Virus genome (UHGV): UHGV-0179803
Direction: 5' to 3' (one strand)
Length of the DNA stretch: 64,000 nt
Source of the DNA: a virus
A program made the translations under genes and the position numbers. Under the pieces are notes generated by a model. The model was not told the origin of the DNA. It did not search any database and worked only from the letters and a program-made list of their open reading frames with translations. This document shows, one piece after another, positions 23,985-56,551 of this stretch (positions are counted from its first letter, which is position 1; the number at the start of each line of letters is the position of its first letter).

Positions 23985-24257
23985 CTACTGGTCAACCAGC
24001 TTAACCATGCAGTGGCCTTCTTTCCACTTAGAAATCGACTTCTCACCGTTAGAATAGTAGACTTCCAGTTTAGCACGGTTATTTTTGATCTGTATGACTT
24101 TTGCTGTCTCCAGAGCACCATAACCGTAATACACTGCAACAGTATCACCTACGTACACTGCACTGCCACGGTAGTCATGGATGTAATCAGTACCTTCTGA
24201 AACCATACTATCCACCTTATTCGAAGAAGTGAGTTCGAGGACAAGATCCTGCCTCAC
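23985..24257 (-). CDS. hypothetical protein
   Basis: 90-aa ORF, start uncertain. Confidence 0.35.
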   Translation of the reverse strand: MRQDLVLELTSSNKVDSMVSEGTDYIHDYRGSAVYVGDTVAVYYGYGALETAKVIQIKNNRAKLEVYYSNGEKSISKWKEGHCMVKLVDQ

Positions 24258-24420
24258 CTTGTTTCACCAGCTCGTACACTTCGCCTTGGCTCGTTTCATA
24301 GATACAAACTTTCTGCCCGTTGCCACGATAAGTGTCCACAAGGTAAGCTGTGTCACCTGCCAATGCAAAACCTGAAGCAAACACCACAGCAGAAATAAAG
24401 ACAGCCCACAGTGTTTTCAT
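24217..24420 (-). CDS. small secreted protein (signal peptide)
   Basis: MKTLWAVFISAVVFASGFALAG signal-like N-terminus, two Cys in mature part; no lipobox. Confidence 0.35.
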   Translation of the reverse strand: MKTLWAVFISAVVFASGFALAGDTAYLVDTYRGNGQKVCIYETSQGEVYELVKQGEAGSCPRTHFFE

Positions 24421-46158: not shown

Positions 46159-47163
46159 ATGATCACTCGTAAAGATGATTTTGGTATTGTTGACCTGGGT
46201 GCAACTCTTGAGCTGGTTCCACGCCAATTCCGTCTGATCACTGGCATGAACCTTTTTGAAACCCACCTGGGTACTTCTACCATCGCACAAATCGAACGTG
46301 TTGACGAAATCGTAGCAGATATCCCTGCTCGTCGTCGTGGTGGTGAACGTAACTACGTAGGTAGCGAACGTGCTCAGATCAAAAACCTGAACATCCCGTT
46401 CTTCCCATTGGATAAAGGGATTACAGCAGCTGACGTTCAAAACTTCCGTCGCTACTTTACTCCTGATGCTCCGAAAACTGTGGAAGATGTTGTAACTCGT
46501 GTAGTTCGCCGCATCCGTATCTCCCATGAAGCTCTGCGTGAAAAAGCACTGTTTGCTGCTGTCATGGGTAAATCCTATGCTCCTGGTGATGCAACCTGCA
46601 AATATGACTATTACACCCTGTGGGGCGTAACTCAGAAATCCATCGAAATCGATCCGGCTGATGCTGCTCAGGACCCGATGGAAGTTATCGAAGAAGGTCG
46701 TCTGCACATTGCTCTGCAAGCTGGTGACAATGCTGGTGCATACCGCATTATTTGCCTGTGCTCTCCTGAATTCTTCAGTGCACTGGTTCATCATCCGCTG
46801 GTAGAACTGGCTTACACCTACTACAGCTCACAACAGGAACCTCTGCGTCGTCGTCTGGGTGCTGGCGGTGAAAATTCAGTCTATCGCGTATTTGAACACA
46901 AAGGCATGACCTTCATCGAAGATATCTCCGGCAACATCCCGGCAAAAGAAGCACGTTTAGTACCGATGGGTATTGATGCTATGTTCCAGCTGCACTTTGC
47001 TCCGGCAGATGACCTGGCAGAAGCAAATACTCCGGCACAAGAACTGTACATGTGGTACAAACACTCAGCTTATCTGCGTGAAGAAAAAGTTGAGTCTGAA
47101 ACCTCTATGCTGGCTGTTAACACCCGTCCTGAACTGGTTGTTAAAGTCACTCTTCATGAATAA
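46159..47163 (+). CDS. major capsid protein
   Basis: 334 aa, strongly optimized codon usage (CGT/CTG/GGT), position in head module after scaffold and decoration-like genes, terminator downstream. Confidence 0.75.
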   Translation: MITRKDDFGIVDLGATLELVPRQFRLITGMNLFETHLGTSTIAQIERVDEIVADIPARRRGGERNYVGSERAQIKNLNIPFFPLDKGITAADVQNFRRYFTPDAPKTVEDVVTRVVRRIRISHEALREKALFAAVMGKSYAPGDATCKYDYYTLWGVTQKSIEIDPADAAQDPMEVIEEGRLHIALQAGDNAGAYRIICLCSPEFFSALVHHPLVELAYTYYSSQQEPLRRRLGAGGENSVYRVFEHKGMTFIEDISGNIPAKEARLVPMGIDAMFQLHFAPADDLAEANTPAQELYMWYKHSAYLREEKVESETSMLAVNTRPELVVKVTLHE

Positions 47164-47245: not shown

Positions 47246-48670
47246 GTGTTCTATCCAGTTGAATATGATCCGAAATTACGGATTTTCAATAACCAGGTAG
47301 ACTTCTACGAATTTCTGGCAGAAGCTAATCCAGAAATCAACGTAGGTCTGTCTGCGTTATTACCACCAACCGAATTTGTTGTTGGTGAAAAACACTTCCC
47401 ATGCAGAACGATTGTGGATTTCTTCGAACAGATTGCAGAACAGACTGGATTGCCAATCGACACGGAAGCCTCCACTATCCGTATGGGTGTAATTCTTTTG
47501 TTCTTCACAGAAGACTTGGGTGAGAGCATCTTAACACTTCAAAGCGGTGATGCTCATATTACGCTTACCCCTTCCGTGTTTAAAGAGGTAGATGCTGCTT
47601 CCAAGGTTTCAGTGGCAAAAGGTCATCTGTGGTATCCTGAAGAAATGCCCAGCAAGGTTACCATAAATGATGAGCAATGTGATGTTGTTTATGCAGAGGG
47701 TACTCAAACTTTCACCATTGGGTGGCCTAAGAAACGTTCTCAGGTTGTAAATCCAGGTCTGACTTCCGAACCGATTGTAAGAGAAGAGTGGGAAGAGAGT
47801 CCTAATACGCTACCAAATGAAAGAGCACTTAAAGAAGACGGTACTTTAAAAATGGGAACGGGTGTAAAAGGCACTTATGCTACAGTTACCAGTGATGGGG
47901 TAATTGAATTAGCACTCATTCCAATGATACCTGGTCGTAAAGTATTAGGTCCTGCTGGCGATGATGGTATTTTTACTAAAACAGAAAAAGGCGACGTTTC
48001 TTGTTTCTTTGGTGTGACTAGTTTGAAATATCCGTTAAAAGATGTAATTGGTTTATATGATTCCATTACTTTAGATGTAATTAGTGATGGTACACCTATA
48101 CAAAAAATGGACTTACAATTACATAATGGCGGTTGGTATGACAAAAACGGAGAAATGTTAGAGGGTACTTACCTTGACGAATATACTATTCAAGAAGCCA
48201 CTCGTGTATCATTCTATGCAGAAAGGGGTAGAGAACATAAGTTTGTTTTAAGTGCTACCTCTGGAGAAAACACGGAGAGCATAGAAGTTACCGTTATTGA
48301 TGAGTACGTAGAACCGGATCCTGAACCAGAGCTGGAACCAGAGCCGGACCCGGATACAGGAGTTGACCCAGGACCTGATCCAGAATCATTACCTGAGCCA
48401 GGACCCACTGTGGGAGACAACGGTGAAACTACAGGGCCTGCTGAATCACAGGGTGCGGAGCCAGCTATAATGACAATGAGTATGGAAGAAGCTGCTCCCG
48501 ATAGCGTCGATGCCATCCTACAGCAGGCTGCTGTTTTAGAAGACGAAGCAGACAAGAGTGGCTCTAAAGTGGCTCTTGAAGCATTCGCCAAACAATACGG
48601 TGTGAGCTTAGCTCGAAATAAAACTTTCGCCAATATGATGAAAGATTTCGAAGCAGCTCTTAGAGCATAA
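47246..48670 (+). CDS. structural protein with Pro/Glu/Asp-rich linker (possible capsid fibre or decoration)
   Basis: 474 aa, GTG start with RBS AAAGGAG; EPDPEPELEPEPDPDTGVDPGPDPESLPEPGP low-complexity linker; bounded by terminators. Confidence 0.4.
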   Translation: MFYPVEYDPKLRIFNNQVDFYEFLAEANPEINVGLSALLPPTEFVVGEKHFPCRTIVDFFEQIAEQTGLPIDTEASTIRMGVILLFFTEDLGESILTLQSGDAHITLTPSVFKEVDAASKVSVAKGHLWYPEEMPSKVTINDEQCDVVYAEGTQTFTIGWPKKRSQVVNPGLTSEPIVREEWEESPNTLPNERALKEDGTLKMGTGVKGTYATVTSDGVIELALIPMIPGRKVLGPAGDDGIFTKTEKGDVSCFFGVTSLKYPLKDVIGLYDSITLDVISDGTPIQKMDLQLHNGGWYDKNGEMLEGTYLDEYTIQEATRVSFYAERGREHKFVLSATSGENTESIEVTVIDEYVEPDPEPELEPEPDPDTGVDPGPDPESLPEPGPTVGDNGETTGPAESQGAEPAIMTMSMEEAAPDSVDAILQQAAVLEDEADKSGSKVALEAFAKQYGVSLARNKTFANMMKDFEAALRA

Positions 48671-48781: not shown

Positions 48782-49456
48782 ATGGCGTGGTATGAAGAAG
48801 AAGAGGTAGTCCCTACTCCTGGTGGGGGAGAGCCTGAAAATCCAGATCCTGTAGGGCCAGATGTTGGTGAAGGCGAGGAACCCACAGATCCTGTGCCTGA
48901 GGAACCGGAACTGCCGACTGTACCAGATGAAGATATTGATCCAGATTTTAGTCAAGAAGATTCATTGTCAGCATTCGTTCGTATTCTGCTTGGTAATGTA
49001 TCACCTGAAGTACTTCCACCGGAAACACTGGCTCTGTTTGTAGAAATGGCAGTAATGAAATACGATCTGGAAAACCATCCAGAAAGGTTGCCGAATGTCA
49101 AATATGATGCAATGGTCCAGGCTGTACGCTGGCTGATGGTTCAGGAAGTTGCGAGCGGTGAGTCCAGCATCAGTTCTCGTCTGGAAAAAGTTGGTGATGA
49201 AACTATCGAAGTCCGTATAGGTCAGACTACATGGCAAGGCTGGAAAGACTTCCTTGACTGGCTGGTTGCCAATCCAGATTATGTTGACTCTGAACTGGAT
49301 TCCTGTGGCAGACTGGTTATCATCGGTGGTGTGCGTGAAGATGAGTTCCAGAGAGTCAAACGTAATAGAAACAGTGTTTGTGGCTTTGATGTTTCTGGTA
49401 TCACACCTATGAGTGGTTTACATGGACAACCAAAAAGATACCCATCTCGCAGGTAA
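48782..49456 (+). CDS. hypothetical structural protein (acidic Pro-rich N-terminus)
   Basis: start MAWYEEEE with RBS AAAGGAG (track start 48755 over-extended); N-terminal PENPDPVGPDVGEGEEPTDPVPEEPELP. Confidence 0.4.
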   Translation: MAWYEEEEVVPTPGGGEPENPDPVGPDVGEGEEPTDPVPEEPELPTVPDEDIDPDFSQEDSLSAFVRILLGNVSPEVLPPETLALFVEMAVMKYDLENHPERLPNVKYDAMVQAVRWLMVQEVASGESSISSRLEKVGDETIEVRIGQTTWQGWKDFLDWLVANPDYVDSELDSCGRLVIIGGVREDEFQRVKRNRNSVCGFDVSGITPMSGLHGQPKRYPSRR

Positions 49457-49471
49457 TTTGCTAAATTAGTA

Positions 49472-49500
49472 TTGAAAATTGTTGCAGCCTGTGGTATAAT
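49472..49500 (+). promoter_or_regulatory. sigma70-type promoter with extended -10
   Basis: TTGAAA 49472-49477, 17-nt spacer, TGGTATAAT 49492-49500. Confidence 0.5.
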
Positions 49501-49518
49501 TTATCTATTGGGGGCAAA

Positions 49519-49986
49519 GTGCTTAGAGTAAAATGCACTTCTAAAACCAATTTTAAGCCGCTTGAAAGGTTCCACAGGGAACTTATTAAGTTGGAAAGTA
49601 AAACAATCTCCTATGGATTCTACGACGAAGAACATTACTCCGGCCTGAATATGGCAACACTGGCTGCAATTCATAACTTTGGCTGGAATGGTCTTCCGGT
49701 TCGTAACTTCATGGAAACTGCTTTCGTATTTTATAATGCGGAACTCTCCAAGCAGATGGAACGACTGCTCCGCGCGATGGCGCGTGGGGCAAGTCCAGAT
49801 ACTATCCTGAAGCAAATCGGTAAAGGCGGGGCTGAGGCCATTAAGTTTGTTATCGAGGCGGGGATGTTCAGCAATCCAAAGGTTAGCGAACAGTGGGCGC
49901 AAGAAAAAGGCTTTAACGAAGCTATGCGTCATTATGATGTGTTGCTTGAGTCAGCAACCTTCAAAATCGGACAATTAAAAGACTAA
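49519..49986 (+). CDS. head-tail joining / virion morphogenesis protein (putative)
   Basis: 155-aa ORF between head and tail modules; positional inference. Confidence 0.3.
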   Translation: MLRVKCTSKTNFKPLERFHRELIKLESKTISYGFYDEEHYSGLNMATLAAIHNFGWNGLPVRNFMETAFVFYNAELSKQMERLLRAMARGASPDTILKQIGKGGAEAIKFVIEAGMFSNPKVSEQWAQEKGFNEAMRHYDVLLESATFKIGQLKD

Positions 49987-49996
49987 TGGAGGTTGA

Positions 49997-50434
49997 ATGG
50001 CTGTAGGCTACAGATTGATTGGTAAAAATAAATTAATTCCGAGAAAGACTTTTAAAGGTCGTCACAGAACGCTTAAACGCATTGATAACAGCCCTTTTGC
50101 TAACAAAGGTGTTGAGCTTGAGATAGAAGAGTTCGATGTTTTAGAATGCGTTATGCAGCCTTTAACAGGCCGTGCGGCTAAAGACTACTCCTCGCAAATT
50201 AACCCCGAAGGTGGCAGACAATACGAAGCGTATACAGTTTACTCTTCTGTACGTCTACGTAACCCCGACGAAGGGGAATATCAACTTGCAGATCAGATCC
50301 AGTTGCCAAACCTGCATGGTGAGTTAACATGGTTCACTGTTCTGAAATGCGATCAATATCATACATCAGGTGTGGAAAGATACCGCTCCTATGTTGTGGA
50401 AGAACCCGCAAATAACGAAGGAGACACAATCTGA
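49997..50434 (+). CDS. neck / tail completion protein (putative)
   Basis: 145-aa ORF, tightly coupled to neighbours. Confidence 0.3.
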   Translation: MAVGYRLIGKNKLIPRKTFKGRHRTLKRIDNSPFANKGVELEIEEFDVLECVMQPLTGRAAKDYSSQINPEGGRQYEAYTVYSSVRLRNPDEGEYQLADQIQLPNLHGELTWFTVLKCDQYHTSGVERYRSYVVEEPANNEGDTI

Positions 50435-50982
50435 TGGAAGAGTTTGAAAAAGTTTTTAGCGATCTGGAGGAAATTGTTGCTAAGATGGCAAGAGTTGCCA
50501 CAGGCAGACGTGTCATCATGGGTGATCAGGAGATCATTCCGAAACCAGATGGTGAGTTTATCCTTCTTGAAACGATGGGTATTCAGCCACACATCTGGGA
50601 AGACAATGAATTCCAGACCGAAGAGGGTGTTGCTTACGTTACCCACAACTACACAGTTACCTATATGTTAACTGCCTATCGTGGTAAAGCGTATGCAGCA
50701 TTGTCCAGATTATTGCAAGCAATAAACCTTCCGATGTTTTACGATAAATTCTTTCCTGATGGTTCTATGTACGCCTATTCTTCGGCCTCTACAATCTCAC
50801 CTCTGCGAGTACCGATGAATAAGCAAGCATATGAGGTAAGAGCCACGGTAATGATGACGTTTAACGTCAGGTTTATTGAGACTGACATGGCAGCGTTCGA
50901 AGATCTTCAGGGCATCGAAGCTGAGCTTCATGTTCTCCACCCTGCTGATGACAGTCAAGCGGTTATCGACCCTGGTCAGTAA
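50434..50982 (+). CDS. neck / tail completion protein (putative)
   Basis: 182-aa ORF, start overlaps upstream stop. Confidence 0.3.
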   Translation: MEEFEKVFSDLEEIVAKMARVATGRRVIMGDQEIIPKPDGEFILLETMGIQPHIWEDNEFQTEEGVAYVTHNYTVTYMLTAYRGKAYAALSRLLQAINLPMFYDKFFPDGSMYAYSSASTISPLRVPMNKQAYEVRATVMMTFNVRFIETDMAAFEDLQGIEAELHVLHPADDSQAVIDPGQ

Positions 50983-51054
50983 TCGTTCTCCATGTAGCGT
51001 AATGATTATGCTACTTGTTAATATCCTGTGCACAAGATATTGAAGAGGAAACAA

Positions 51055-52443
51055 ATGCCTTACAATGATAAAGTTGTCGATGTGCAAGTAAACCTGGGTA
51101 CACAGCCGATTGACACAGTAGGCTTCGAAACTCCCCTGTTTATTGCCATCCACAATAATTTTACTGAACGCGCTCGCGTTTACGCTGAACTCGATCAGTT
51201 AGTTGACGATGGTTTTGCACCAGGTAGTGCTGCTCACACCTTCGCTTCTAACGCTTTCGGTGGTGAGTTTCCGCCACAATACATTGTCATTGGTCGTCAG
51301 GCTGCAACAGAAACTGTTGTTGACTTTGTTGGTGGTGTATTCCCAGCTGAATCTGAAGTTATCGTAAACGTAGCAATCCCTAATTATGATCGTGCCGTAG
51401 TCATCCAAGTTGGTGGTGGTACTGCTGCTACAGCAATTGCTGAGGCTCTGGCTACAGCGATCACTGAAGATGAAACCTTGTCAGGTGCTGGCGTAACTGC
51501 TACCGCTGGGGAAGGTAAAGTTACCGTTACAGGGGCTACCGTAGGCTACAGTGCTGGCGATTTCAAAATCGAAAATAAATCTGATGAAACTCCGCAGACG
51601 ATTATCGATGAAATCAATGACGCGAACAACAACTGGTATTTCCTGTGTGCCGAAGATCACAGCACTACTGCTATCACAGCTCTTGCAAAATGGGCACAAG
51701 CTAACTACAAACTCCATGTTTACTCCACTGCTGATGAAGATGCAATGGGCGTAGAAGGGGGTATCGGTTACGCTCTCAAACTGCTCCAGATTGATAATAC
51801 CATAGGTATGTGGGATCCGCGTGCTAACATGGACTTCCCAGAAGGTGGTATCATCGGTGCAATGGCATCCAATGACCCGTCATATGGTGATAGCTTACAC
51901 CTGAAAAAAATGCCAGGCATTACTCCTCCGAACATGAGTATCGGACAGAGAATGGCATTGTGGGATAATAACCTGAACTTCTACAGAATGATCAATGGTG
52001 TTGGTTGCTTCTGGGAAGGTAAATGCGCTTCAGGCCAATATGCTGACGTAATCAGATTCTCCCACTGGATCAAATTCCGTTCCGAAGAATCTATGTTTGG
52101 CTACATGCATCGCAGATCCAATATAGGCATGAGCATGAAAATGTCTGATGATGACCTGCCTGTTATTAAATCTGTTCTGATGAACGACCCGATCAACGTT
52201 GGTATCACCAACGGTGCTATCCTGACCGGATATGACGAAGAAAATAGTGTGTTCTATGATCCGATTATCACTGTTCCGAAACGTGCTAACATCCCTACCA
52301 ATCAGCTGGCTGCTCGCACTTTGGAAGGTGTTAAAGTAGAACTGGTCTATAACAACGCTCTGCACTTTGTTAAAATCCGTATCAATGTCCTGCTGGACAA
52401 AACGGGTACTACCGGCACAAGTGCTCAGGCAATGACTGCATAA
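51055..52443 (+). CDS. tail sheath-like major tail protein (putative)
   Basis: about 462 aa from ATG 51055 (RBS GAGGAAA), followed 12 nt later by a 157-aa ORF: sheath/tube size pair; optimized codons; family not verified. Confidence 0.45.
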   Translation: MPYNDKVVDVQVNLGTQPIDTVGFETPLFIAIHNNFTERARVYAELDQLVDDGFAPGSAAHTFASNAFGGEFPPQYIVIGRQAATETVVDFVGGVFPAESEVIVNVAIPNYDRAVVIQVGGGTAATAIAEALATAITEDETLSGAGVTATAGEGKVTVTGATVGYSAGDFKIENKSDETPQTIIDEINDANNNWYFLCAEDHSTTAITALAKWAQANYKLHVYSTADEDAMGVEGGIGYALKLLQIDNTIGMWDPRANMDFPEGGIIGAMASNDPSYGDSLHLKKMPGITPPNMSIGQRMALWDNNLNFYRMINGVGCFWEGKCASGQYADVIRFSHWIKFRSEESMFGYMHRRSNIGMSMKMSDDDLPVIKSVLMNDPINVGITNGAILTGYDEENSVFYDPIITVPKRANIPTNQLAARTLEGVKVELVYNNALHFVKIRINVLLDKTGTTGTSAQAMTA

Positions 52444-52454
52444 CAGGAGGGTAA

Positions 52455-52928
52455 ATGGTCACAGATATTTTAACACCTTATGCATATGACCCGAAAAAGG
52501 TTCGTCTCTACTTGATGACTCAGAGAGTATTCGGTTTTGCAGCGGATACAAAAATTGTTGTTTCTCGTAACGAGGACAATATTTACCCGCATATGGGCGT
52601 GGATGGTGAACTAAGTGCAGCTTTATCCCGTAACCAATCTGGTGTAATGACTGTATCTTTACAGAACACCTCCGCATGGAACGCCTACCTGTCAGACTGG
52701 CAGAAACAAGCATCTATCACAGGTCTTGTATTCTTCCCAGTGCTGCTGGAAGGTAGCCAGGGGCCAGGCATCAGCACTATTGGCTGGATTCAGAAACAAC
52801 CTGATCTGACTTATGGTACTGAAGTTGCCCAACTTGACTGGGAAATCGGCGTACTGGATTGCTGGTTAAACAAAGACAACATCGAATCTGCAATGATGGG
52901 ACTTGCAGGTTTAACTGGTATCATTTAA
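52455..52928 (+). CDS. tail tube-like protein (putative)
   Basis: 157-aa ORF directly after sheath-like gene, terminator downstream. Confidence 0.45.
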   Translation: MVTDILTPYAYDPKKVRLYLMTQRVFGFAADTKIVVSRNEDNIYPHMGVDGELSAALSRNQSGVMTVSLQNTSAWNAYLSDWQKQASITGLVFFPVLLEGSQGPGISTIGWIQKQPDLTYGTEVAQLDWEIGVLDCWLNKDNIESAMMGLAGLTGII

Positions 52929-52935
52929 TGCTACA

Positions 52936-52960
52936 GGCCACCTTCGGGTGGCCTTTCTTG
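52936..52960 (+). terminator. rho-independent terminator
   Basis: GGCCACC-TTCG-GGTGGCC followed by TTTCTTGTTT. Confidence 0.7.
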
Positions 52961-52970
52961 TTTATAAGGT

Positions 52971-53000
52971 TTGACAAAAGTTGGTGTTTTGTGGTATAGT
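52971..53000 (+). promoter_or_regulatory. sigma70-type promoter with extended -10
   Basis: TTGACA 52971-52976, 18-nt spacer, TGGTATAGT 52992-53000. Confidence 0.5.
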
Positions 53001-53033
53001 TCCTTTGTGTTTAAAATTACTAGGAGTTTACAG

Positions 53034-54560
53034 ATGGCTGGAAAATGTTACACTAAAAAAGAATGGCTAACAGCTGTCTTCAAAGAAAACCCTGAGTTTG
53101 AAGAAATGTACGATTACAGTCAAACTGAGTACAAAGGCAGTAGAGAAAAAGTGAGCATTATTTGCAAAAAACATGGTGCGTTTTCTGTAGAAGCAAATGC
53201 TCATAGAAAAGGAGAGGGATGCAAAGAATGCTACCTTGAGCGTAAACGTGGAAACAAGGAAGAATTCGTTGAAAAAGCTAAAGAAGTGCATGGGGTGCGT
53301 TACAACTACTCTAAGGTTGTGTATAAAGACAGAGTGACAAAAGTAGATATCATCTGCCCTGATCACGGAGTGTTCTCACAAAAACCTAGCAAACATTTGA
53401 GAGGACAGGGCTGCCCCCATTGTGCTAACATGGCTCGTGGTAGAAAAAGAAGAAACTCTTTTGAGGAAGTAGTGGAACAGGCCAAAGAGGTCCACAAAGA
53501 TAAATACGTTTACAAAGGTATGTTTTACGATGAAAGGAAGAAAGGTATTCTTAATATTAAATGTTCAAGGTGTGGATCAGAGTTCCAACAACCTGTGAAA
53601 GACCATGTACACCAAAATCATGGGTGTAGACATTGTGCAAAACTAACCTCAAGAGTGGAAGAATCTGTCTTTGACTTCATAAAAACTATCTGCCCAGACG
53701 CGGAGCAGTCTGATCGCACTATCCTGGATGATGGCAAAGAGTTAGATATCTATGTCCCATCAAAGCGTGTGGCGATTGAAGTCAATGGTATCTTCTGGCA
53801 TGGAGACAATCATAAGCCTAGGGATTATCATTACAAAAAATGGTTAGCCTGTAAAGAGAAAGGTATTCGTCTGATCCAGATCACAGATTATGATTGGAAT
53901 AACAACCAAAAAGTGTTTAGCCAGTTGCTGGCTCATGCCTTGGGGTGCAATAGTGAGCGTAAAGTGAATGCTAGGGAATGCGAAGTGGTGCATCTCAAAT
54001 CAACAGAGTGCAAAGAGTTTTACAACGCTTACCACCCACAAGGCCATTCTCCTAACCCAATTAATCTGGCCTTGAAAACGAAAGAAGGGGAAATTGTAGC
54101 GATCATGAGCTTTGGTTATGGTAAAACTACAAGGGGTCAGGCCAGAGCTAACGGTACGACTAAAGCAACATGGGAGTTATCAAGATTTGCATCAAGCTGC
54201 TCTGTTCGTGGTGGGGCATCTCGACTGTTTAAAACGTTCATCAGAGAGAACAATCCAGAAGAGGTTAGCTCATTCAGCATGAATGACTACTTCGCTGGTG
54301 GGGTTTACGAAGTGTTAGGATTTGTTGCGGAGACGTATGGCAAACCAGACTACAGAGTGTTCCATCCGTTCAGCGGGTTACGCCACAAATCATACTGGCA
54401 ACGCCGTAATATCCCGAAACGTTTGAAAGAACTGGGTAAAGAAGAATTAAACTTTGACCCAGAAATTGATCAGCGTACAGAGCGGGAGATAGAGGATTTG
54501 GTTGGTGCTATCCGGTTGTGGGACAGCGGCAAGATCAAATGGGTATGGAAAGCTGAGTAA
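53034..54560 (+). CDS. free-standing nuclease-like protein: Zn-ribbon repeats plus PD-(D/E)xK (Vsr/DUF559-like) domain
   Basis: three repeats of C..HG.F......H..G.GC..C (e.g. ICPDHGVFSQKPSKHLRGQGCPHCA); DIYVPSKRVAIEVNGIFWHG fits D..E.NG..WH nuclease core; own promoter and terminator. Confidence 0.5.
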   Translation: MAGKCYTKKEWLTAVFKENPEFEEMYDYSQTEYKGSREKVSIICKKHGAFSVEANAHRKGEGCKECYLERKRGNKEEFVEKAKEVHGVRYNYSKVVYKDRVTKVDIICPDHGVFSQKPSKHLRGQGCPHCANMARGRKRRNSFEEVVEQAKEVHKDKYVYKGMFYDERKKGILNIKCSRCGSEFQQPVKDHVHQNHGCRHCAKLTSRVEESVFDFIKTICPDAEQSDRTILDDGKELDIYVPSKRVAIEVNGIFWHGDNHKPRDYHYKKWLACKEKGIRLIQITDYDWNNNQKVFSQLLAHALGCNSERKVNARECEVVHLKSTECKEFYNAYHPQGHSPNPINLALKTKEGEIVAIMSFGYGKTTRGQARANGTTKATWELSRFASSCSVRGGASRLFKTFIRENNPEEVSSFSMNDYFAGGVYEVLGFVAETYGKPDYRVFHPFSGLRHKSYWQRRNIPKRLKELGKEELNFDPEIDQRTEREIEDLVGAIRLWDSGKIKWVWKAE

Positions 54561-54564
54561 TCAT

Positions 54565-54590
54565 AAGCCTCTTCGGAGGCTTTTCTGTCT
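54565..54590 (+). terminator. rho-independent terminator
   Basis: AAGCCTC-TTCG-GAGGCTT followed by TTCTGTCT. Confidence 0.6.
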
Positions 54591-54593
54591 ACA

Positions 54594-54622
54594 TTGACAA
54601 AAAGTGAGTACAATGTTATAAT
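54594..54622 (+). promoter_or_regulatory. sigma70 consensus promoter
   Basis: TTGACA 54594-54599, 17-nt spacer, TATAAT 54617-54622. Confidence 0.55.
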
Positions 54623-54701
54623 AAATCTATATAATAACGTGGTGGTGACAGTTGTCTAAAATCGCATATCTGAATGCTTTTCATAAGAGGATAATAAAGA
54701 A

Positions 54702-55844
54702 ATGACAGATATCTACAACGATAAAGTTGTACACGCCGAGGTGGCTCTTGGTAAAGACGCTGCATCGGGTGGCAACAGGACTTCTCTGGATAAAGAGGCT
54801 TTACGAAGTTATGTTCTTGCTGCTAGAGAGGCGGCTAACAAAGCTAAAGTGGCTTCAGAAGAGGCAGCTTTATCACGAGACGCTTCCCAAGCAAACGCTA
54901 ACAATGCATCGATTTCCGCAACCAATGCACAAGATAGTGCAGATCGTGCAGAATCAGCAGCTAACGCAGCCGAATTATCTTCCTCTTCTGCTGAGGGCAG
55001 TGCAACTGCCGCTGCCTTATCTGCAACGCAAGCATCCGCTGATGCATCTACAGCAACACAAGCAAAAGATGACGCTGTTGCAGCCTCTGGTGTGGCAACC
55101 CAACAAGCAGCAAATGCTGAATCATCTGCCGATACATCCGCTGAAAGTGCAGATGCAGCAGCAGCAAGTGCCGCTTCTGCTCAAGGATCTGCAACTTCTG
55201 CTTCCGGTTCTGCCACGACTGCAACAGAGAAAGCAACAGCAGCGAACAAATCTGCCACCGCAGCAAAAACGTCAGAGACTAATGCCAAAACCTCTGAAAC
55301 CAACGCCGCAAGCTCAGCTAGTGCAGCATCCGTTTCAGAAAGCAATGCTTCTGATTCTGCAACAGCAGCAGAGTCTTCAGCGACTTCTGCAAGATCGAGT
55401 GCTTCAAGTGCATCGACAAGCGCCAGCACAGCCACTACTAAAGCGAACGAAGCTGCAACCAGCGCCACTGATGCTGCTAACAGTGCCAAATCCGCTTCTA
55501 ATAGTGCATCAACTGCGACAACAAAAGCAGGTGAAGCAAGTAAGTCAGCAACAGATGCTGCAAATTCAGCAAGCTCTGCTTCAGCAAGCAAAGATGCTGC
55601 TGCTGCCTCAGCCAGCGCCGCAGCTACCAGCGAAACCAAAGCAAAAGCCAGTGAAACTGCTGCTGCAAGCTCTGCTTCTTCGGCAGCCACCAAAGCATCC
55701 GAGGCTGCAACATCTGCCACTAACGCAGCAAAAAGTGCATCAGACGCTGCAAATAGTGTGGAGGAGGTAAAAGCACAGTTCGAACAGCGCCTTACTGAAC
55801 TTGAGGCAAGAATTGCTGCTCTTGAGGGTGCTAAAAATAATTGA
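54702..55844 (+). CDS. Ala/Ser/Thr-rich fibrous protein resembling the low-complexity shaft of side-tail-fibre (Stf) proteins
   Basis: 380 aa; repeats such as AAKTSETNAKTSETNAASSASAAS and SASTATTKAGEASKSATDAANSA; short C-terminal coiled coil; no receptor-binding domain; own promoter and terminator. Confidence 0.55.
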   Translation: MTDIYNDKVVHAEVALGKDAASGGNRTSLDKEALRSYVLAAREAANKAKVASEEAALSRDASQANANNASISATNAQDSADRAESAANAAELSSSSAEGSATAAALSATQASADASTATQAKDDAVAASGVATQQAANAESSADTSAESADAAAASAASAQGSATSASGSATTATEKATAANKSATAAKTSETNAKTSETNAASSASAASVSESNASDSATAAESSATSARSSASSASTSASTATTKANEAATSATDAANSAKSASNSASTATTKAGEASKSATDAANSASSASASKDAAAASASAAATSETKAKASETAAASSASSAATKASEAATSATNAAKSASDAANSVEEVKAQFEQRLTELEARIAALEGAKNN

Positions 55845-55868
55845 CACAAAAACCGCTTGATGTATTAT

Positions 55869-55897
55869 GCCTCCAACAAACAAGTTGGGGGCTTTTG
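55869..55897 (+). terminator. rho-independent terminator
   Basis: GCCTCCAAC..GTTGGGGGC hairpin followed by TTTTGCT. Confidence 0.5.
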
Positions 55898-56011
55898 CTA
55901 TGAAACACTTTGAAGAGACTTAGGGTTGCATCTTTTGGATTATTGCAACACTGATGATCGGTCTGTTCTTTGTTGTACCTGGTGTGGAGGCTGCACGGAC
56001 TATGCACCTTG

Positions 56012-56040
56012 TTGACAAAAAGAAAGTACAATGCTATAAT
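56012..56040 (+). promoter_or_regulatory. sigma70 consensus promoter
   Basis: TTGACA 56012-56017, 17-nt spacer, TATAAT 56035-56040. Confidence 0.55.
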
Positions 56041-56086
56041 AAACCTATGCGATAACGCATAACAACTAACTTAAGGGTAACGAGAA

Positions 56087-56551
56087 ATGCCAAACTTTAG
56101 ACCTACTACAGAAATAGATTTAGTCGGACATAACTTCATCATAACCCATTGGTCCCCGATGGTGTGTATGCATAACCTGCCAAAGATTGGTAGGATTATC
56201 GCTGTGCCGATGGGAGCTATTGGTGGTGAATTACTTAATGGTGGGAGAAATTTAGCAGAAGTGCTCCCAACAGCCTTAGTCTATCTGTTCGAACAACTTG
56301 ATGACCAATCTATTGACGAACTGTTTAAAATCCTCTTCAGCGATGTTACAGTAGACGGTGTGGACAAGGTGGATCCTGATAAACTCTTTACTGGCAATCT
56401 GTTTGCAATGCTTAAACTGGCTGGTAAGGTGCTGGAGGTAAATTACGGATCTTTTTTCACGCAAGAAGGTTTAGACGGCCTGATGTCGATGTTGCAGGGA
56501 CTGCAAATGGCGAATCAGATCAACAGTCTGGACCAGGAAACTCAGGAATAA
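56087..56551 (+). CDS. tail assembly chaperone (G-like)
   Basis: 154-aa ORF immediately upstream of tape measure gene; contains in-register slippery heptamer; -1 frame ORF 56563..56808 follows. Confidence 0.6.
   Translation: MPNFRPTTEIDLVGHNFIITHWSPMVCMHNLPKIGRIIAVPMGAIGGELLNGGRNLAEVLPTALVYLFEQLDDQSIDELFKILFSDVTVDGVDKVDPDKLFTGNLFAMLKLAGKVLEVNYGSFFTQEGLDGLMSMLQGLQMANQINSLDQETQE
56452..56458 (+). other. -1 programmed ribosomal frameshift slippery site T_TTT_TTC
   Basis: heptamer in zero-frame register (codons TTT TTC = FF of GSFFTQ); the -1 frame is open from here to stop at 56806-56808, predicting a ~240-aa G-T-like fusion. Confidence 0.5.

Follow-up and report, generated by a model that had tools for sequence, protein, structure and literature searches.

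A fibre gene lacking a receptor-binding domain, probably derived by deletion from a mobile accessory-fibre cassette, in an uncultivated Vequintavirinae/phiTE-like phage

The 380-residue reading frame and its expression signals

The virus genome UHGV-0179803 was analysed over a stretch of 64,000 nucleotides (nt), hereafter the window. It corresponds, with identical coordinates, to the first 64 kb of the contig NODE_8 (139,523 bp) of ENA ERZ1034815. Its structural module points to an uncultivated myophage of the Vequintavirinae/phiTE-like clade. The gap between the tube gene and the tail assembly chaperone (TAC) gene holds an open reading frame (ORF) for a protein of 380 amino acids (aa), preceded by a predicted promoter and followed by a terminator (Table 1). 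This gene is probably a deletion-derived allele of a mobile accessory-fibre cassette and has lost the receptor-binding domain that relatives carry.

The first-pass annotation had described an Ala/Ser/Thr-rich product resembling the shaft of side-tail-fibre (Stf) proteins and ending in a short coiled coil. The ORF was recovered as described. Alanine (33.4%), serine (20.0%) and threonine (10.0%) make up 63% of the protein, and the string KTSETNAKTSETNAASSASAAS is present. Autocorrelation at seven residues is strong for all three amino acids; for alanine, r is 0.42 at lag 7 and the signal is sustained to lag 35. A single unbroken register places an alanine at each seventh position from about residue 69 to 349, over about 40 heptads. 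The shaft repeats are therefore ordered and not random low complexity. A heptad zipper of Leu, Ile and Val forms the C-terminus (aa ~353-378), and the a/d pattern of the shaft runs on into V353, V356 and F360 of the zipper VEEVKAQFEQRLTELEARIAALEGAKNN. An AlphaFold2 monomer model, calculated with no alignment, has helices at residues 28-199 and 214-379 with a mean pLDDT of 76 and low confidence for the N-terminal 27 residues. It forms a long helix with one fold-back, for which Foldseek found no match in the PDB; beyond helicity, model and search add little.

The likeness to Stf was borne out by matches of the shaft to tail-fibre PHROGs (E=3e-15 to 1e-12) and to residues 9-231 of T5 pb1 (chain 8hqz_d, E=9e-4). 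Lambda Stf and T5 pb1 share with the window protein an Ala/Ser/Thr heptad shaft, predicted to be helical, with KTSETNA-type strings. The shaft match is largely compositional, and the N-terminal 98 aa belong to no Pfam or PHROG family. The complete protein has no match in Pfam, NCBIfam or PADLOC. A comparison with Stf and fibritin families had been proposed; the shaft matched tail-fibre families, and no sequence similarity to fibritin was found.

Could the ORF be spurious, or an unrelated low-complexity protein, as the first-pass annotation had considered? Long ORFs are open in two other frames (54727-55770 on the plus strand, 55181-55849 on the minus strand), which is explained by the GCN/TCN/ACN codon bias, and the missing Foldseek match agrees with such a reading. 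Homologues and a ribosome-binding site were found for frame 1 only, and its codon usage resembles that of the neighbouring structural genes. The frame-specific homology covers the non-repetitive N-terminus (85% identity to protein P0121, 57-61% to others) and the zipper. Together with the heptad periodicity, these features effectively refute a spurious ORF as judged from sequence comparison. The identical 380-aa protein is encoded on four assembled contigs of 50-200 kb, making a one-off assembly artefact unlikely.

The expression signals are intact. The promoter assigned to the gene at first pass was recovered with all 12 consensus positions, and a second promoter of the same pattern precedes the chaperone gene. 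A 29-nt pattern, derived from these two tested sites themselves, occurs in the window only at 54594 and 56012 and in 0 of 100 shuffles. About 46 bp around the first copy (54594-54639) are 85-87% identical to the TAC promoter region of L006, the closest relative. The predicted promoter of the 380-aa gene is thus a duplicated copy of the chaperone promoter. The 5' untranslated region (UTR) is homologous to that of full-length relatives (blastn of window 54651-54717 against contig L002 9944-10017, 78%). The terminator, also claimed before, was confirmed: hairpin and U-tract reach -17.4 kcal/mol (z = -4.46 against shuffles), and it is kept in L002 and L006.

A predicted promoter and a terminator around an accessory gene amid an operon of essential genes are a layout like that of morons. 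The gene could in principle be a non-structural moron with an early, host-type promoter, encoding a decoy, an anti-defence or a superinfection-exclusion factor. The perfect sigma-70 consensus and the terminator would fit, as would the small membrane protein encoded by the adjoining cassette gene (below). This is very improbable. The promoter copies the one that drives the chaperone and tape-measure genes, and a similar promoter stands there in Escherichia coli relatives. Homology to structural fibre genes spans the protein from end to end, and no match in PADLOC, NCBIfam or Pfam supported the decoy suggested at first pass.

The accessory-fibre cassette and the segment missing from the window

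A search of 5.8 billion proteins with the whole protein returned mainly compositional matches to fibres of marine podophages; its hits also included E. coli Stf-like proteins with collar domain PF07484 (P0090). The only true relative was P0014 (533 aa, on a 136.8-kb contig), which shares the non-repetitive N-terminus YNDKVVHA...AALSR.ASQANA. The family was therefore sought in a stepwise manner, with the N-terminal 91 aa as query, then a 94-aa protein encoded next to the relatives' fibres, then an N-terminal profile. An exhaustive profile search of 1.84 billion representatives found 7 proteins. The profile found nothing in JGI metagenomes and GTDB genomes, and IMG/VR contributed a single contig.

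Among 50,697 phage records, no true relative was found by megablast of the locus, by tblastn of the 380-aa protein, or by tblastn of the relatives' receptor-binding domain, 94-aa protein, L010-type N-terminus and P0162. The only matches there were GGTGxT repeats in minor tail proteins of Microbacterium phages. By these searches, no isolate among the records carries the cassette. It appears to be a small mobile accessory-fibre cassette, restricted to contigs of the uncultivated Vequintavirinae/phiTE-like clade. Several contigs with the 94-aa gene of L011 come from pig-gut metagenomes. An E. coli chromosomal protein, probably from a prophage (P0005, 484 aa), shares the shaft end with the cassette fibres and has a related tip (...WGFRQDYW), a hint that the host is an enterobacterium and that fibres have been exchanged with prophages.

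The full cassette consists of the 5' UTR, the fibre gene, a gene for 94-99 aa, a promoter-like box with the terminator, and a gene for a small membrane protein. The fibre has an N-terminal YNDKVVHAxV motif, an Ala/Ser/Thr heptad shaft and a C-terminal domain of GGTGxT repeats ending in ...WQFRNDAW. The product of the 94-99-aa gene ends in a leucine zipper, ...LLNAKVDQRLAELEARVAALE...; the 94-aa protein gave only sub-threshold coiled-coil noise in Pfam and PHROGs and no family match in NCBIfam. The membrane protein (79-95 aa, phrog_4641) is intact in L002 and L010. Family products span 80 to 1,722 aa with a highly variable shaft length; the fibres of L011, L010 and L002 have 1,722, 1,667 and 533 aa. 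In these three contigs, the cassette lies just after the major capsid gene and not in the tube-chaperone gap.

The window shares both ends of this cassette. Its fibre has the N-terminal motif YNDKVVHAxV followed by ...AALSRDASQANA..., and its flanks retain the 5' UTR, the zipper ...QRLxELEARxAALE and the terminator, with 78-90% DNA identity at both ends to L002 and L006. The motif was invariant across the family; the window keeps YNDKVVHAEV exactly, and the frameshifted copy in L006 has drifted to YNDEVVHTDV. Neither a receptor-binding domain nor a separate 94-aa gene is present in the window.

The comparison with L006 (Logan SRR25571343_46729) locates the loss. The two genomes share 93.6% nt identity across window 49000-52977 and 90.7% across window 55774-60000 (L006 7388-11597); for the sheath, tube, chaperone and tape-measure genes the range is 90-94%. 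In L006, the corresponding tube-chaperone site holds a full fibre with receptor-binding domain, the 94-aa gene and the small membrane gene. Its fibre is split by a frameshift into 158 and 655 aa at an A8 run (L006 5060-5075), which is +2 relative to an A6 in L011. A true frameshift, phase variation at a run prone to slippage or an error of assembly could each account for the split. Within the cassette, three blocks align. The first (window 54559-54963, 89.7%) covers terminator, promoter, 5' UTR and the first 87 codons, the second (55629-55751) the end of the shaft, and the third begins with the last 23 codons of the 94-aa gene. Nothing in the window corresponds to L006 6202-7387, the segment with the receptor-binding domain and codons 1 to ~72 of the 94-aa gene. 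The 3' end also aligns with L002 (window 55774-55904 against L002 11869-12001, 85% nt).

The shaft itself is collinear with the long fibres of L011 and L010 in blocks of 81-94% nt identity. Relative to L011, its length differs by 2583, 210, 84 and 63 nt, each an exact multiple of 21 and hence of one heptad. The final gap of 1116 nt, a multiple of 3, takes in the tip together with the spacer between the genes and the 5' portion of the 94-aa gene. The missing tip segment amounts to 1116-1186 nt relative to L011 and L006. By tblastn, the tip ...WQFRNDAW, the receptor-binding domain and the 94-aa gene occur nowhere in the 64-kb window, which agrees with the earlier statement that the protein lacks a receptor-binding domain; Pfam and NCBIfam gave no such domain either. 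Since the gap ends within the 94-aa gene, the short coiled coil noticed at first pass is the tail of that neighbouring gene fused in frame. An origin of the zipper elsewhere in the window was ruled out, as tblastn found no second copy.

A further gene of the cassette has decayed. A remnant of the membrane-protein gene follows the terminator; its translation, MKHFEET*GCIFW...ARTMHLVDKKK..., was recognised by tblastn with the 95-aa protein of L010 (E=8e-9). The 3' part has been replaced by the chaperone promoter, and the frame enters the -35 box of promoter copy 2 (...HLVDKKK...). The premature TAG marks a second place of decay within the cassette. The 5' boundary of the cassette lies just downstream of the ~46-60-bp copy of the chaperone promoter and the 3' boundary inside the membrane-protein gene. 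With boundaries at both promoter copies, the cassette is bracketed by the duplicated promoter. An intact 67-aa paralogue of the membrane protein, with a signal-peptide-like start, is encoded elsewhere in the window (24217-24420, minus strand).

Of the origins offered in the first-pass annotation, a fibre fragment left by recombination is the one supported by these data: both ends are homologous to relatives that have the receptor-binding domain and the 94-aa gene between them, the middle is missing, shaft lengths are quantised in heptads and the expression signals are intact. In the window lineage, the cassette lies between the tube and chaperone genes with a copy of the chaperone promoter on each side. 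In the probable sequence of events, recombination between heptad repeats, which keeps their register, took out ~1,000 shaft codons. A further deletion of ~1.1 kb would have removed the receptor-binding domain and the first ~65-70 codons of the 94-aa gene and fused the shaft in frame to the zipper of that gene. The product is presumably still made, as a parallel trimeric alpha-helical rod of ~48 nm (~320 helical residues at 0.15 nm each), and may still dock on the virion by its conserved N-terminus. It would not bind a receptor. Lacking the tip, it would be a loss-of-function stub for adsorption, and the phage would rely on its normal downstream baseplate fibres.

Several observations weigh against so simple a history. 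The codons at the junction, ANSVEEVKAQFE (55752-55790), agree poorly with both parental sequences in L006, and the corresponding stretch of the 94-aa protein (EAALxLLNAKVD) is nearly invariant in ~35 clusters. The deletion would then be old, complex or derived from an unsampled allele. The middle of the shaft is closer to L011 and L010 than to L006, so the window allele is no simple derivative of the L006 allele. Against L006, the N-terminal 87 codons have a ratio of non-synonymous to synonymous substitution rates (dN/dS) of 0.39, based on only 23 substitutions and with the core-motif changes on the L006 side; the neighbouring genes have 0.01-0.15. Finally, the zipper is also found at the end of protein P0162, where it follows another globular domain.

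Other fusions, the direction of change and the N-terminus

Fusions to the 94-aa gene were also found in relatives. P0161 (243 aa) joins EVNAG to AGINLDEV and keeps residues ~32-94 of the 94-aa protein; P0160 (80 aa) joins HADVT to INDTMD and keeps ~57-94. In P0123, P0124 and P0125 (136-142 aa), DRAE(E/Q)AA is joined to L(A/T)LLNAKV and residues ~66-94 are kept. For this last type, L004 and L007 match L010 and L002 around clean gaps of 4.9 and 1.5 kb, and the flanking blastn blocks at the junction overlap by 8 bp. No other form is nearly as common as the long one; the cluster of P0126 has 114 members. Two proteins combine the family N-terminus with other parts. P0162 (781 aa, L019 65-2410) has a short coil, a globular domain of ~550 aa (phrog_33169, E=9e-272) and the zipper, and in P0163 (182 aa) the N-terminus is joined straight to a tip domain (...WAFRQDYW) with no shaft.

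The polarity could be reversed: N-terminus, coil and zipper would be ancestral, and an insertion would have brought the receptor-binding domain and the first part of the 94-aa gene into the relatives, with the window in the original state. P0162, for which there is no separate 94-aa gene, has the same zipper at its end, and a zipper of this type could be the ancestral C-terminus of the fibre. The conserved 5' and 3' ends around a variable middle resemble a recombination 'frame', and the cassette ends may act as one. The 94-aa protein of L006 is 97% identical to the P0126 cluster of the otherwise more divergent L011-type phages, so an import of the middle into L006 is conceivable. This direction of change is nevertheless improbable. 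The retained part of the 94-aa protein begins at ~32, ~57 or ~66; an insertion requires the full 94-aa protein to be already there. Such staggered retention is predicted by independent deletions and cannot be produced by a single insertion. Together with the clean gaps in L004 and L007 and the predominance of the long form, it favours deletion.

All fusions seen are in frame (window, P0160, P0161, P0123-5, P0162). Part of this excess is ascertainment, because a 94-aa query finds only in-frame fusions. Truncated N-terminal fragments exist as well: P0121, with a frameshift in the A8 run, P0122 and P0164.

The in-frame fusions bear on present function. The 380-aa protein could be a selected, fibritin-like whisker whose N-terminus anchors to the neck or sheath, whose coil projects and whose zipper is a trimerisation nucleus like the T4 foldon. 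Every fusion keeps the N-terminal motif and the zipper in frame, and the a/d register is unbroken from the shaft into V353, V356 and F360. At the junction, the hydrophobic ALALL of the 94-aa protein is changed to VEEV, as expected of a solvent-exposed coil. The anchor motif is perfect in the window, the expression signals are intact and the allele is present in four assemblies. Against this reading, the in-frame bias is partly ascertainment, truncated fragments exist, and recombination between heptad repeats keeps the register automatically. The neighbouring cassette gene is a pseudogene, and stub lengths of 80 to 380 aa argue against a length-dependent role. A selected whisker, which would serve as brace, spacer or environment sensor instead of receptor binder, is considered unlikely; such a function is compatible with an origin by deletion.

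The collar or whisker fibre proposed at first pass is possible as a residual function, by analogy with T4 fibritin (Wac) and the gp40 whiskers of phage XM1 (summarised in PMC12609058). These also have a short N-terminal attachment region, a long alpha-helical coiled coil (a trimer is predicted here), a small C-terminal oligomerisation element and no receptor-binding domain. Unlike Wac, the window protein ends in a helical zipper (helix to residue 379) and not in a beta-hairpin foldon, and its coil is an unbroken Ala-heptad run instead of a segmented one. It also derives, probably, from a receptor-binding fibre. Neither a C-terminal foldon nor homology to Wac was found in the 380-aa protein, which has no Pfam match.

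How might the N-terminus attach? The presumed attachment end matches just one further place in the window, the very start of the tail-sheath protein. The fibre starts with IYNDKVVHAEVALG (54702-54755) and the sheath with PYNDKVVDVQVNLG (51055-51099). In a six-frame search of the whole window, fibre MTDI-YNDKVVHAEVALG and sheath MP-YNDKVVDVQVNLG agree in 9 of 13 residues with E=0.37; a hand estimate, not a tool output, gives E of roughly 0.01 if only protein N-termini count. All relatives of the two proteins keep the motif, and in L002-type fibres the strand occurs twice in tandem.

In phages phi92 and phiTE, the N-terminal arm of the sheath protein provides one strand of the handshake sheet between rings (PMC13450770, PMC11972413). 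In phiTE, a C-terminal extension of the tail terminator mimics sheath strands at the head-proximal rings (PMC11972413). The likeness to the sheath arm and this precedent suggest that the fibre might dock by mimicry of the arm. In this unproven proposal, x-YNDKVVHAEVxLG would copy the sheath arm M-P-YNDKVVDVQVNLG, one strand of the four-stranded handshake sheet. The phiTE terminator is a precedent from a related virion for a non-sheath protein in the strand positions of the sheath arm; the case of the fibre differs in being a sequence similarity of 13 residues. The extended proposal, that the fibre docks on an end of the sheath lattice (neck-proximal ring or baseplate) by strand mimicry and that tip-less stubs are kept for a whisker- or brace-like structural or regulatory role, is distinctly unlikely. 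If true, mimicry of the sheath arm would be a new way of fixing fibres to contractile tails.

Genome setting and meaning

The structural module runs from the major capsid gene to the tape measure gene and on to baseplate genes (Table 1), with ordinary baseplate spike and fibre genes downstream. The sheath protein is ~70% identical to sheaths of E. coli rV5-like phages. In these phages, nothing but a terminator and a sigma-70-type promoter separates the tube gene from the chaperone gene. The absence of the cassette from this site characterises it as accessory.

The first-pass annotation had placed the fibre gene between the tube-like gene and the chaperone. It does lie in that gap, but its upstream neighbour is a homing endonuclease gene and not the tube gene. 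The endonuclease matches phrog_559 'HNH endonuclease' (E=1.5e-103) and the Pfam domain DUF4379, and also DUF723. L006 lacks it. One or two such genes occupy the tube-chaperone gap in L002, L004 and L011, and L007 has an HNH_3 gene there; the gap is thus an insertion hot spot.

Table 1. Features of the fibre locus and the structural module in the window
Feature	Position	Strand	Remarks
Major capsid gene	46159-47163		structural module
Adaptor, then head completion	between major capsid and tail terminator genes		structural module
Tail terminator gene	50434-50982		structural module
Tail sheath gene	51055-52443		structural module
Tube gene	52455-52928		structural module
Homing endonuclease gene	52971-54560	+	508-529 aa; gene-caller start 53034; between tube gene and fibre cassette
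Terminator hairpin after endonuclease gene	54565-54582	+	-10.5 kcal/mol, z = -3.8
Predicted sigma-70 promoter, copy 1	54594-54622	+	TTGACA-17-TATAAT, 12/12, extended -10 TG
Fibre 5' UTR	54651-54701	+	Shine-Dalgarno AAGAGGA at 54685-54691, 10 nt before ATG
Fibre-shaft ORF	54702-55844	+	380 aa, as first described
N-terminal region, aa 1-28	54702-54785	+	motif YNDKVVHAEV; presumed virion-attachment end
Ala/Ser/Thr heptad coiled-coil shaft, aa 29-350	54786-55751	+	heptad periodicity, AlphaFold2 helices
Leu/Ile/Val zipper, aa 351-380 and stop	55752-55844	+	homologous to last ~25-30 codons of relatives' 94-aa gene
Promoter-like box over stop codon	55841-55868	+	TTGACA-16-TATTAT; in relatives kept upstream of small membrane-protein gene
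Intrinsic terminator	55869-55897	+	hairpin 55869-55892; 9-bp GC-rich stem, 6-nt loop, U-tract
Remnant of small membrane-protein gene	55900-56055	+	phrog_4641 type; TAG at 55921-55923
Predicted sigma-70 promoter, copy 2	56012-56040	+	same pattern as copy 1; before chaperone gene
TAC gene	56087-56551	+	Pfam PF21822, E=5e-24
Tape measure gene	56866-59220		followed by baseplate genes

Further observations concern the surroundings. An 81-aa ORF (phrog_10409) with a TTG start lies after the chaperone gene (56563-56808); in other tail chaperone pairs, the two frames are joined by a programmed frameshift. Behind the major capsid gene, at the site of the fibre cassette in relatives, the window has a gene for a 474-aa protein (47246-48670). 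This protein has a Phage_Inh_N domain and an acidic Pro/Glu-rich linker, and its C-terminus matches the T4-type minor head protein 'inhibitor of prohead protease' (phrog_1051). The window has 23 near-consensus sigma-70 promoters (at least 11/12), 16 on the minus strand (6000-35200) and 7 on the plus strand within the structural module (37222-62005). This suggests divergent transcription units that use the host RNA polymerase, even inside the tail genes.

Like lambda Stf, the cassette fibre is an accessory fibre on a phage that already has receptor-binding proteins at the baseplate. Unlike Stf and pb1, the window fibre has no receptor-binding or collar domain and no intact assembly gene downstream. 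Where an assembly or chaperone gene would be expected, ~25-30 terminal codons of the relatives' 94-aa gene are left, joined to the fibre gene. Laboratory lambda PaPa reportedly lacks side tail fibres because stf is split by a frameshift, a finding ascribed to Hendrix and Duda in 1992. The cases share a dispensable accessory fibre gene, a simple inactivating mutation and a viable phage, and the 158+655-aa split in L006 is a direct parallel. The lesion in the window differs: a deletion with fusion in frame has left the ORF complete but with a new C-terminus. The event is of a known kind, a mosaic and decaying tail-fibre gene, and not a new fibre type.

Natural populations here show an Ala-heptad fibre gene changing its length, with products of 80-1,722 aa and exact seven-codon steps in the shaft. 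Fusion to the following gene has removed the tip repeatedly. For annotation, this means that 'tail fibre protein' calls based on Ala/Ser/Thr shafts are uninformative on receptor binding. The finding is relevant for host-range prediction and for the engineering of fibres of a chosen length.

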